DNA from: an uncultured Bacteroidales bacterium
Lineage (GTDB): Bacteria; Bacteroidota; Bacteroidia; Bacteroidales; UBA10428
NCBI GenBank assembly: GCA_964503885.1
Contig: CAZDCD010000013.1
Location: forward strand, 50,696 to 114,695
Direction: 5' to 3'
DNA length: 64,000 nt
Part shown: positions 33,339-33,563 of the stretch, piece after piece
Layout of the letters: every line of letters starts with the position of its first letter
Position numbering within the stretch: the stretch's first letter is position 1
The notes under the pieces: model-generated
What the model was told of the DNA's origin: nothing
What the model saw: the letters and a program-made list of their open reading frames with translations, nothing else
Databases searched by the model: none
Position numbers and translations under genes: made by a program

Positions 33339-33446
33339 ATGAAAAACAACAGTGGCAAAATCAGGTATACTAAGAGCACACCCACAATTCACCTTCATTC
33401 CTTTACTACTCTTGACTTTATGTGTTGCTGCTGTTGTTTTTGTTAA
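33339..33446 (+). CDS. Small ORF (35 codons) ending MCCCCCFC; candidate cysteine-codon leader peptide
   Basis: ATG 33339 to TAA 33444-33446. Translation MKNNSGKIRYTKSTPTIHLHSFTTLDFMCCCCCFC. Six Cys codons fall in the last seven sense codons (33423-33443). It lies 118 nt upstream of the sulfhydrylase ATG. Too short to appear in the ORF track. Expression is unproven. Confidence 0.3.
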   Translation: MKNNSGKIRYTKSTPTIHLHSFTTLDFMCCCCCFC

Positions 33447-33478
33447 TTCATTCCCTCAGCAAATTTGAATCCTTTGAT

Positions 33479-33486
33479 TACTTTTG
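33479..33486 (+). promoter_or_regulatory. Candidate -7 box (TACTTTTG) upstream of the sulfhydrylase gene
   Basis: Exact TAnnTTTG match, 78 nt upstream of ATG 33564. It lies downstream of the Cys-rich ORF, which matters for interpreting that ORF. Confidence 0.4.
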
Positions 33487-33563
33487 GGGGATGAGATTTT
33501 CCCGGTCATTCAATTTTAATCATTCAACTTAATCAAATTAACACCATACTAAATCATCATGTT

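Follow-up and report, generated by a model that had tools for sequence, protein, structure and literature searches.

A cysteine-codon leader ORF upstream of metY in Bacteroidota, probably acting as a translated attenuator

We analyzed a 64-kb stretch of DNA from an uncultured Bacteroidales bacterium, hereafter the window, and found that the gene for a metY-type sulfhydrylase is preceded on the same strand by a short ORF with a run of cysteine codons at its end. We propose that positions 33282 to 33563 constitute the promoter and leader of metY and that the leader is a translated attenuator sensing cysteine and possibly methionine, a reading to which we assign a probability of about 0.62. That the Cys-run leader serves as a ribosome-based sensor of cysteine supply is very likely, given that this arrangement is found repeatedly throughout the phylum Bacteroidota. 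Cysteine-responsive leader switches are known in other bacteria; for Bacteroidota, or for metY, they have apparently not been described.

The regulated gene (33564 to 34874, + strand) encodes a 436-aa O-acetylhomoserine/O-acetylserine sulfhydrylase, whose product scored 661.8 bits against TIGR01326, O-acetylhomoserine aminocarboxypropyltransferase/cysteine synthase (cutoff, 495). Since the next gene is convergent, metY is monocistronic. The divergent gene on the upstream side is pheT, and the intergenic region between them (33113 to 33563) measures 451 nt, one more than the 450 nt previously counted. An exact-sequence look-up of the window MetY matched no record, and its relatives were gathered through a homologous-protein search.

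Rereading the sequence and its translation bore out the 35-codon ORF described in an earlier note made from the same DNA. It runs from ATG 33339 to TAA 33444-33446 on the + strand, encodes MKNNSGKIRYTKSTPTIHLHSFTTLDFMCCCCCFC and ends in MCCCCCFC before the stop. The last eight codons (33420 to 33443; ATG TGT TGC TGC TGT TGT TTT TGT, that is, Met, five Cys, Phe, and Cys) indeed place six cysteines among the last seven sense codons. The ORF lies on the same strand as the sulfhydrylase gene, as had been noted, but the gap between the two is 117 nt (33447 to 33563) and not 118 nt. If translation began at the in-frame ATG 33324, the leader would have 40 codons, MQFFSMKNNSGKIRYTKSTPTIHLHSFTTLDFMCCCCCFC. 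By the rules derived for Flavobacterium johnsoniae (PMC6847099), ATG 33339 stands in a poor context, with U instead of A at position -3. The suggestion that translation might start at 33420 and yield only an octapeptide is unlikely, because relatives keep long ORFs with ATGAAAAAC-type starts and because the Met codon beside the run is a general conserved feature. Across the six frames of the window there is a single stretch of seven codons with at least six Cys, while 30 first-order Markov simulations of 64 kb gave mean counts of 0 for at least six Cys and 0.03 for at least five. Other Cys-rich stretches of the window (at 578, 8477, 11286, 15154, 18024, 34064, and 51482) are alternative frames of long genes and were dropped.

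Absence of a Cys-run ORF upstream of metY orthologs had been named beforehand as a finding that would speak against the leader. We searched 161 metY loci from Bacteroidota, taken from among the matches listed, for a same-strand short ORF upstream of metY with at least four Cys in seven codons, and found such a leader in 60 of them. Cultured carriers of the leader family include Pedobacter rhizosphaerae DSM 18610 (L061), Flavihumibacter soli (L037), Pontibacter oryzae (L057), and Hymenobacter (L076 and L078). ORFs with at least four Cys in the last 12 codons occurred at 1.45 per kb-strand in the interval 50 to 350 nt before metY, compared to 0.047 per kb-strand elsewhere in the metY loci (all six frames), an enrichment of about 31-fold. 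The geometry is conserved as well: for 51 of the 60 leaders, 0 to 3 codons separate the last Cys from the stop, and the distance from the leader stop to metY has a median of 123 nt (interquartile range, 105 to 140; 60 loci). The leader frame is open over a median of 39 codons, compared to 6 for the two alternative frames. Three or more Cys were counted in the tails of 52/82 ORFs versus 2/164 control frames. Both cysteine codons are used in the family leaders (TGT, 182; TGC, 116). In the tails of 89 family leaders, Cys accounts for 35% of residues (8.6-fold enriched) and Met for 10% (4.7-fold enriched), while the N termini vary across the family.

The loci closest to the window gave a similar picture. 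This set comprises 18 loci, corresponding to 13 distinct upstream sequences, of which 12 share the downstream ABC-transporter gene and 7 of those also pheT. A Cys-run ORF was present in 12/13 of the distinct upstream sequences, with 11 distinct peptides, and in all 11 distinct clade leaders a Met codon stands no more than two codons away from the run. The homologous leader of locus L161, MQFLSKMKNNSSVARYSKSTPTNYRHSTASLIIMCCCCCFC, also ends 117 nt before metY, and analogous leaders were found in L162 to L176, L001, and L174, with L172 lacking the uORF.

Upstream of the leader we identified a Bacteroidota-type promoter. A candidate -33 element, TTTG (33282 to 33285, + strand), lies 20 nt upstream of a -7-like box, TTTATTTG (33306 to 33313, + strand), which matches TAnnTTTG at seven of eight positions. 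The TTTG is kept in L161, L162, L163, L165, L168, and L172, and the box is conserved in the syntenic relatives as TTAATTTG, TTTATTTG, or TTTCTTTG. Among 47 control promoters located upstream of SAM aptamers, 27 have TTTG at 19 to 21 nt, with a mode of 20. The predicted transcript start, near 33320, precedes ATG 33324 by 4 nt and ATG 33339 by 19 nt. Locus L172, which has lost the uORF, retains the upstream promoter about 110 nt before metY. Within the promoter spacer, an inverted repeat that can be read directly from the sequence (AGATAT-TT-ATATCT, 33293 to 33306) could be the operator of a DNA-binding regulator; L161, L162, L163, L165, L168, and L172 carry equivalent (A)GATA(T)-N-(A)TATC(T) repeats in the corresponding position.

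The leader's stop codon is directly followed by a pyrimidine segment, UUCAUUCCC (33447 to 33455, + strand), a candidate 5' arm of an antiterminator or, alternatively, a candidate Rho-loading or ribosome-shielded site. In the minimum free energy (MFE) fold, 33448-33455 pairs with 33487-33494. Farther downstream lies a weak, terminator-like imperfect hairpin (33461 to 33517, + strand), with a core of UGGGGGA (33485 to 33491) and UUUCCCG (33498 to 33504) and with UUUU at 33514-33517. The 5' arm of this hairpin shares sequence with the purine arm GGGGGAUGA (33486 to 33494), which is the alternative partner of 33447-33455. Masked folding switched from the helix 33448-33455:33487-33494 to the hairpin with its U run: with a ribosome modelled on Cys codons 1 to 5 the segment after the stop was free, with a ribosome on the last Cys or the stop it was masked, and the hairpin formed only when at least the first 11 nt after the stop were masked (-9.8 kcal/mol).

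This switch was not significant against 1,000 dinucleotide shuffles, of which 553 folded as well and 33 (3.3%) gave the same switch with both energies equally good, and we therefore keep it only as a permitted model. The best combination of hairpin and U tract in the window (-8.8) was equalled by 1 of 20 shuffles. No strong structure was detected in 33405-33566, from the leader to the metY start region (z, +0.8), or in 33444-33520 (z, +0.3), and the Cys run showed no stable pairing with the metY start region; it pairs with a box at the 5' end of the ORF (see below). A simple terminator scan found nothing in the interval between the leader and metY. The caution voiced earlier, that no convincing terminator is present here, thus holds, the hairpin not being distinguishable from shuffles. 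The TTGCTG/CAGCAA complement pointed out in the earlier note does exist, but at 33425-33430 and 33457-33462 and not at 33426-33431 and 33459-33464. The syntenic relatives did not reveal a shared fold of the post-stop region; in L161, counterparts of the segments exist in altered sequence (CCUCUUACA / UGUAGAGGAA / UUUCCUC), with matching changes seen by eye.

Canonical terminators are found in other members of the family. Hairpins of -18 to -34 kcal/mol with U tracts follow the leader in L017, L051, L101, L068, L133, and L138, and in L010 the 1:2, 2:3, and 3:4 pairings drawn by eye correspond to the classical four-segment design. Over 58 loci, the best hairpin plus U tract averaged -6.3 kcal/mol compared to -2.8 kcal/mol in shuffles, and combinations at -12 or better occurred in 14% of these loci versus 2% of shuffles. 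The spacer of the window contains 21% C and 11% G, and spacers are G-poor with more C than G in 58/58 family loci, though G-poor 5' regions may be general in the phylum.

On this basis, we propose the following model. Transcription would start near 33320 from the promoter formed by TTTG 33282 and, after 20 nt, TTTATTTG 33306, and the leader ORF (33339 or 33324 to 33446) would be translated first. If Cys-tRNA(Cys), and possibly also Met-tRNA, were scarce, the ribosome would stall in the run; if Cys-tRNA(Cys) were plentiful, it would reach the stop at 33444 and leave. Where it sits would then determine whether transcription proceeds into metY. As for the sign of the response, the classical one is most likely, stalling leading to more metY. 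A ribosome stalled on the first Cys codons would leave 33447-33455 free to pair with 33486-33494, or would physically shield the G-poor stretch, and either event would prevent premature termination and raise metY expression. A ribosome at the stop would mask 33447-33455 and then be released, and transcription would end early, at the weak hairpin and U run (33461 to 33517) or by way of Rho, which would act on a spacer poor in G and rich in C. Once translation has ceased, a helix between 33342-33358 and 33425-33441 may close the leader.

The same translated Cys-run leader could also work with the opposite sign, which we consider unlikely. Efficient translation of the run as far as the stop would then maintain metY expression, either by opening a terminator or because coupling protects the RNA from Rho, while a stall at hungry Cys codons would uncouple ribosome and polymerase and turn metY off, so that sulfide is reserved for cysteine synthesis. 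Such an arrangement is suggested by L168, where the last leader codons contain the 5' arm of a 7-bp hairpin (AGGCAGU/AUUGCCU) that AUUUUUA follows. This hairpin would be melted by a ribosome at the end of the ORF but not by one stalled in the run; by eye, both L168 and L162 have a small hairpin so placed. The hairpin of L168 is, however, weak and not conserved in L162. The G-poor, C-over-G spacers of all 58 loci fit Rho-mediated polarity after uncoupling, and relatives in which the leader is joined to a SAM aptamer would obtain a sensible gate, open at low SAM with enough cysteine. Against this sign, in the relatives whose structures are clearest, L010 and the L017 group, the Cys codons belong to segment 1 of a 1:2/2:3/3:4 arrangement, in which a stall leads to read-through, and the position of the run 0 to 3 codons from the stop in 51/60 loci is the geometry of stall-dependent shielding, as in tnaC.

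The Cys run is also part of a conserved RNA helix. A box covering codons 2 to 7, AAAAACAACAGUGGCAA (33342 to 33358, + strand), pairs with a 3' arm inside the run (33425 to 33441), and the resulting 17-bp helix appears in both the MFE and the centroid folds of 33320-33450 (-26.7 kcal/mol; z, -2.6; equalled by 3 of 200 shuffles). RNAalifold found no consensus in a mixed alignment of 11 clade sequences, and pairs were therefore counted on the seven syntenic sequences. The helix is conserved there with little covariation: the box AACAGCAGC is kept in 7/7 sequences and 86.6% of cells are paired, compared to 34 to 40% when the register is slid by 1 or 2 positions in either direction. L001 has the same helix architecture with a different sequence (z, -4.95), and only the Cys run could be aligned between the window leader and L001. 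In L163 and L164, the box is conserved although the ancestral ATG has become ATA and the box lies outside the longest ATG-started ORF. Across the family, the mean duplex energy between the 5' end and the Cys run equals the shuffled mean (46 loci), the helix being limited to the clade of the window plus L001, L010, and L026.

The Cys run and the 5' box could thus act mainly as RNA, the helix being, for example, a determinant of processing or stability or a protein-binding site, with the ORF secondary or untranslated. This is the only statistically supported structure in the window leader, it recurs in L001 and in all seven syntenic sequences, and its persistence outside the ORF in L163 and L164 speaks for a role at the RNA level. 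We nevertheless regard this view as distinctly unlikely: the Cys-run ORF is family-wide and the helix is not, and a purely structural role does not account for the strict periodicity of TGY, for open frames that are long and start with ATGAAA, for a stop that directly follows the run, or for the enrichment in Met codons. In addition, RNA and coding roles are mutually compatible.

Between the leader and metY lies an exact TAnnTTTG box, TACTTTTG, present at 33479-33486 (+ strand) as described before, which may be the -7 element of a second promoter or a conserved U-rich RNA element. An exact TAnnTTT[G/A] box is found 79 to 85 nt before the metY ATG in the window, L161, L162, and L165, and a seven-of-eight version occurs in L163, L168, L173, and L172. 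The warning that this box could be a promoter therefore stands: its conservation in the window's own clade makes a second promoter possible, and part or all of metY transcription could bypass the leader. In the extreme case, 33479-33486 would be the real metY promoter and the leader transcript would be largely irrelevant, the upstream ORF belonging to a separate short transcript, either of a gene for a small Cys-rich peptide or of a small RNA that is unrelated. The exact match in the window and the presence of the box, with at most one mismatch, across the clade, including the leaderless L172, agree with this scenario. However, among the clade sequences only L172 has a -33 TTTG at 19 to 21 nt from the box, making 0/7 for the leader-bearing ones against 27/47 for the controls, and exact boxes between leader and metY are depleted in the wider family (1/60 loci, the window only, versus 4.5 expected), while the leader keeps its distance to metY. 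The unconserved N termini are contrary to what is expected of a functional peptide, and an internal promoter would in any case be compatible with attenuation of transcripts from the upstream promoter. We therefore hold an irrelevant leader to be decidedly improbable. Finally, a functionless chance ORF in an AT-rich spacer, in favor of which only the weak local RNA structure can be cited, is refuted to the point of being negligible by a simulated expectation of about 0 such Cys runs per 64 kb, by the 31-fold enrichment upstream of orthologs, and by the Cys-run ORFs in 12/13 distinct upstream sequences of the closest loci.

In line with the earlier observation that nothing here resembles a SAM riboswitch, Rfam scans found no family at the gathering score over the whole 64-kb window and nothing meaningful at an E value of up to 10 over 33050-33650. 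Among the related metY loci, on the other hand, a SAM-I aptamer (RF00162) was detected in 97/161. Of the 60 loci with a leader, 46 have the aptamer on its upstream side, as in L012 and L061, and usually the aptamer ends about 7 to 11 nt before the leader AUG. Full-text literature searches found no description of a SAM-I aptamer combined with a Cys/Met-codon ORF. We tentatively suggest, at slightly less than even odds, that in much of Bacteroidota the metY SAM-I riboswitch acts by gating leader translation, so that one leader integrates SAM, Cys, and Met, and that the window represents a derived state. No conventional terminator or platform sequestering a start site would be used. Instead, the P1 helix would end about 7 to 11 nt before the AUG of a translated Cys/Met-run leader, SAM binding would gate translation of that leader, and the leader ribosome would report the charging of both sulfur amino acid tRNAs. 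The window would then have lost the aptamer and would carry a promoter with a palindromic operator and the helix from the start to the Cys run. Against the attenuator model stands the finding that 41 loci whose flanks were adequate showed no leader and no SAM aptamer.

Ribosomal sensing of amino acids on leader ORFs is textbook knowledge for Proteobacteria and, to our knowledge, hardly documented for Bacteroidota, a phylum with mRNAs devoid of Shine-Dalgarno sites and with poorly understood output mechanisms of riboswitches. If our proposal is correct, sulfide enters methionine synthesis throughout Bacteroidota under the control of one widespread leader family, which responds to the charging of cysteine tRNA and probably also of methionine tRNA. 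This family would, in most lineages, act jointly with a SAM-I aptamer situated inside a ribosome footprint of the leader start codon, which would offer a concrete model of a riboswitch acting through a short ORF in bacteria without Shine-Dalgarno sequences and a compact natural RNA sensor with two or three inputs. The leader ORFs, of 25 to 60 codons, are mostly unannotated and should be recognized as regulatory leaders.

The classical attenuators of Proteobacteria (trp, his, leu, thr, and pheA) share with the window a run of regulatory codons near the end of the ORF and, as predicted here for the family, alternative pairings that depend on ribosome position; the canonical terminator with a U tract is shared with the relatives L010, L017, L051, L101, L068, and L133. 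They differ in that the terminator and antiterminator of the window are weak and lack statistical support and that the amino acid being sensed (Cys, perhaps also Met) does not simply correspond to the final product of the pathway in which the regulated enzyme acts.

The mycobacterial polycysteine short ORFs, which were shown experimentally to be cysteine-responsive attenuators (Canestrari et al., bioRxiv 10.1101/834739), are similar in several respects, actinobacterial cys leaders having first been predicted by Seliverstov et al. in 2005 (PMC1262725). As in the window, a run of Cys codons lies near the stop and before sulfur amino acid genes, there is no obvious intrinsic terminator, and ribosome pausing at Cys codons is the signal, as we propose here. 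However, the phyla differ and no sequence homology was seen. The mycobacterial ORFs are leaderless, while the window has a predicted 5' untranslated region of about 19 nt, with the next gene about 120 nt away, and belongs to a phylum that does not use Shine-Dalgarno sequences. The window also has Met codons beside the run and the helix between the first codons and the Cys run, and most of its relatives have a SAM-I aptamer before the ORF. The uORFC-8-2 motif upstream of cysS in Rhodobacterales, a predicted ribosome-mediated attenuator (Brewer et al. 2021, PMC8632094), likewise has tandem Cys codons. Unlike the window leader, it has only two of them, in the middle of the peptide, with a well-defined two-stem structure including a terminator, and its gene encodes cysteinyl-tRNA synthetase in a different phylum.

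In tnaC of the Escherichia coli tna operon, the ribosome stalls at the very end of the leader ORF, beside an unstructured, G-poor Rho-loading stretch, and free tryptophan is sensed through the nascent peptide, not through tRNA charging. The stall site proposed here likewise lies at the end of a leader ORF beside a G-poor stretch. Termination of this type, dependent on Rho and similar to that of tna, was also proposed for actinobacterial cys leaders (Seliverstov et al. 2005, PMC1262725). For the window, in contrast to tnaC, a contribution of Rho is suggested by base composition only.

Riboswitches and short ORFs are also combined elsewhere. The Salmonella mgtA leader joins a Mg2+ riboswitch to the proline-codon ORF mgtL. 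In Mycobacterium tuberculosis, such leaders include a B12 riboswitch with a uORF (PMC11260477) and an Mbox with a uORF and Rho (PMC12810186). As in the relatives of the window, the aptamer is directly followed by a short ORF, translated in these leaders and predicted to be so in the relatives, and two signals can therefore be integrated in one leader. The window itself differs from these systems in having no aptamer, and its relatives differ in combining SAM-I with a Cys/Met-codon ORF.

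The leader ORF runs on the forward strand from the ATG at 33339 to the TAA at 33444-33446, with a second in-frame ATG at 33324. Its long form translates as MQFFSMKNNSGKIRYTKSTPTIHLHSFTTLDFMCCCCCFC*, and its final eight codons read ATG TGT TGC TGC TGT TGT TTT TGT, confirming the coordinates and the Cys-codon tail described in the earlier note. A stretch of at least six cysteines within seven codons occurs only once across the six frames of the 64-kb window and never in 30 first-order Markov simulations. The metY gene (33564-34874) lies 117 nt 3' of the leader and matches TIGR01326, the profile of the O-acetylhomoserine/O-acetylserine sulfhydrylase subfamily, at 661.8 bits (cutoff, 495). 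Since the upstream pheT is divergent and the downstream ABC transporter gene convergent, metY is monocistronic. The window harbors no SAM riboswitch, as previously claimed for the intergenic region: Rfam returned no family at gathering score anywhere in it, and nothing meaningful at E ≤ 10 over 33050-33650.

We then compared 161 metY loci, comprising 80 from species-representative genomes, 80 from metagenomes, and the window; the fetched loci show 67 to 85% protein identity and are nearly all from Bacteroidota. The lack of a Cys-run ORF before orthologs had been named beforehand as the refuting outcome; a short same-strand ORF with at least four cysteines in seven codons was found just before metY in 60 of the 161 loci, window included. 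ORFs with at least four cysteines in their last 12 codons reached 1.45 per kb-strand in the zone 50 to 350 nt before metY, versus 0.047 elsewhere in all six frames (~31-fold lower). The leader stop falls within 0 to 3 codons after the last cysteine in 51 of the 60 loci, at a median of 123 nt from metY (interquartile range, 105 to 140 nt). In the last ten residues of 89 leaders, cysteine accounts for 35% and methionine for 10%, which is 8.6-fold and 4.7-fold, respectively, versus the remainder of the peptide. Both Cys codons are employed (182 TGT and 116 TGC), and N-terminal conservation is confined to close relatives. The leader is conserved and very probably translated, and its interpretation as cysteine sensing stands, the Cys-run ORF being conserved before metY orthologs. 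Our verdict is that a Cys(/Met)-codon leader probably couples tRNA charging to metY expression; in the favored sign of response, a ribosome stalled at the Cys run would turn metY on.

A protein search yielded MetY homologs with 83 to 88% identity, whose contigs were fetched. Of these loci, 12 share the downstream ABC transporter gene, and 7 of those also have pheT upstream. Among 13 distinct upstream sequences of the closest loci (the related locus L001 and the window included), 12 carry a Cys-run leader, representing 11 distinct peptides, and each clade leader has a Met codon at most two codons from the Cys run. The window peptide has a clear homolog in L161, MQFLSKMKNNSSVARYSKSTPTNYRHSTASLIIMCCCCCFC, likewise 117 nt before metY. 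The syntenic relative L172 (~870-1035) is a natural deletion in which the upstream promoter is kept and the leader ORF is gone; its metY is called as 479 aa because the gene caller ran it across the gap. In L163 and L164 (~686-712), ATA rather than ATG occupies the ancestral leader start position and the next in-frame ATG lies eight codons further downstream, so that the conserved AACAGCAG box falls outside the longest ATG-started ORF. On the metagenome contig L174 (661-771), the source annotation lists a Cys-run leader of 36 codons (MKATRIVPFKTKARNPGQDGKGLYFSIDDMCCCCCM) among the genes and assigns it to no family.

Upstream of the leader, a TTTG at 33282-85 and TTTATTTG at 33306-13 are separated by a 20-nt spacer, with a predicted transcript start near 33320; the spacer contains a perfect inverted repeat, AGATAT-TT-ATATCT (33293-33306). 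Because this whole unit, inverted repeat included, is kept in L161, L162, L163, L165, L168, and L172, the leader has its own conserved promoter. Across 93 SAM-aptamer loci, 51 exact TAnnTTTG boxes cluster 31 to 50 nt before the aptamer, and 27 of 47 such promoters have a TTTG 19 to 21 nt upstream of the box (commonest spacing, 20 nt). The inverted repeat may be a transcription factor operator, and such a regulator could stand in for the SAM riboswitch missing from the clade.

The TACTTTTG box at 33479, which the earlier note had considered as the potential real promoter, is indeed present in the window, and similar boxes 79 to 85 nt before metY are conserved in the clade (four exact and four with a 7-of-8 match). 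No -33 element is found at the correct spacing for this box in the window, and the leader-metY interval is short of exact boxes family-wide (1 of 60 loci versus 4.5 expected). The 33479 box is a possible second promoter. The promoter-like TAnnTTT[G/A] box is followed 6 to 12 nt on by another conserved motif rich in U, (G)AUUUUYCC (33479-33503 in the window), and the pair recurs at equivalent positions of L161, L162, L165, L168, L172, and L173. It survives in L172 despite the loss of the leader ORF; there, the TTTG of the old -7 box sits 21 nt upstream of the TAnnTTT[G/A] box.

A SAM-I aptamer was detected upstream of metY in 97 of the 161 loci, using Rfam and an nhmmer profile that extends it and recovers all 54 Rfam matches. 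It is present in 46 of the 60 Cys-leader loci, and the window and its clade represent the aptamer-less form. In the fused form, the leader ATG stands close behind the 3' strand of the aptamer's P1: among 82 SAM loci having an ATG close behind the aptamer, the offset peaks at 7 to 11 nt (55 loci), and AAA is the second leader codon in 44. A conventional terminator between aptamer and Cys run is mostly missing (15% reach -8 kcal/mol or better); a few non-Bacteroidota-type loci carry a classic terminator immediately 3' of the aptamer. The leader ORF looks like the expression platform of the riboswitch in fused loci. Since initiation in Flavobacterium johnsoniae requires that the stretch from -20 to +20 be unstructured and depends on adenines at -3, -6, -12, and -13 (PMC6847099), we infer that leader translation could be gated by a P1 locked by its ligand, with its end at about -10.

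An aptamer followed by a close Cys-run leader ATG is seen, for example, in L012 (2620-2868), and also in L010, L015, L018, L021, L024, L031, L032, L037, L043, L044, L058, L060, L061, L064, L067, L070, L078, L092, L108, L110, L130, L131, L134, L140, and L153, most having no conventional terminator between aptamer and run. The Chitinophagaceae type has a separate short leader, ..CICCCCCMP*, 150 to 470 nt past the aptamer; in L042, L069, L096, L123, L136, and L138, a conserved CAGATTCAAAGCTTC-type platform follows the aptamer, and the separate leader lies 92 to 148 nt before metY. Marinifilaceae leaders (L016, L023, and L030) end in Met/Arg rather than Cys runs (MMRMQRMMRML, MRMQMMMRML, and MMMRMRGMQML); their ORFs start 9 to 10 nt after the aptamer, and the leaders lie 435 to 509 nt before metY. 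They may represent a methionine-sensing variant of this device.

A single structure in the window's leader has statistical support: a 17-bp helix that pairs codons 2 to 7 (33342-58, AAAAACAACAGUGGCAA) with the Cys run (33425-41), at -26.7 kcal/mol (z, -2.6). In seven syntenic sequences, 86.6% of its cells are paired, solely in the correct register, and all seven retain the box AACAGCAGC, which encodes the recurrent N-N-S-S. Covariation is scant because both strands are conserved. In L001, another sequence forms the same architecture (z, -4.95). The helix is not a feature of the family as a whole. The TTGCTG/CAGCAA pair noticed previously is present, one or two bases from its reported positions.

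Masked folding of the window pairs 33448-55 with 33487-94 when the A site is on Cys codons 1 to 5, and gives an imperfect hairpin at 33461-33517 ending in UUUU when the ribosome occupies the final Cys codon or the stop codon. Because the post-stop fold energies are ordinary for composition and no post-stop fold shared among relatives was found, we regard this switch as a permitted model and do not count it as evidence. In this lineage, the read-out may be a weak intrinsic terminator or Rho. The leader-metY spacer is G-poor, with C exceeding G, in 58 of 58 loci, so that the read-out may be Rho-dependent and tna-like, as proposed for actinobacterial cys leaders (Seliverstov et al., PMC1262725). 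Across the family, terminator-like hairpins are commoner than in shuffles. Several more distant members show textbook attenuators: 1:2, 2:3, and 3:4 pairings are seen in L010, and terminators with U tracts, at -18 to -34 kcal/mol, in L017, L051, L101, L068, L133, and L138.

L017, L051, and L101 have aptamer-less leaders with a common N-terminal motif, NINPCTFGNAV(C); their ORFs extend 17 to 25 codons beyond the Cys run, and the canonical terminators downstream of them are very strong (-26 to -34 kcal/mol). At 81 to 139 nt before metY in 12 Cytophagales-type loci (L012, 2890-2950, and L013, L018, L019, L021, L033, L035, L047, L070, L094, L105, and L110), an invariant GCAACA complementary to Cys codons follows the leader stop. 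It precedes a conserved hairpin with the loop nnGUGAC, which shows compensatory changes in 4 of 10 pairs, lacks a U tract, and matches no Rfam family.

A full-text literature search of incomplete coverage returned no description of a Cys-run leader before Bacteroidota metY or of a SAM-I aptamer fused to a Cys-run ORF, which is absence of evidence only. Riboswitch-uORF interplay is known from the B12 and Mbox leaders of M. tuberculosis (PMC11260477, PMC12810186). Cysteine-codon leaders have been predicted in Actinobacteria (PMC1262725), and a two-Cys-codon attenuator has been predicted upstream of cysS in Rhodobacterales (PMC8632094). The mycobacterial cysteine-codon leaders are demonstrated cysteine-responsive attenuators, which are leaderless and act on translation (bioRxiv 10.1101/834739).
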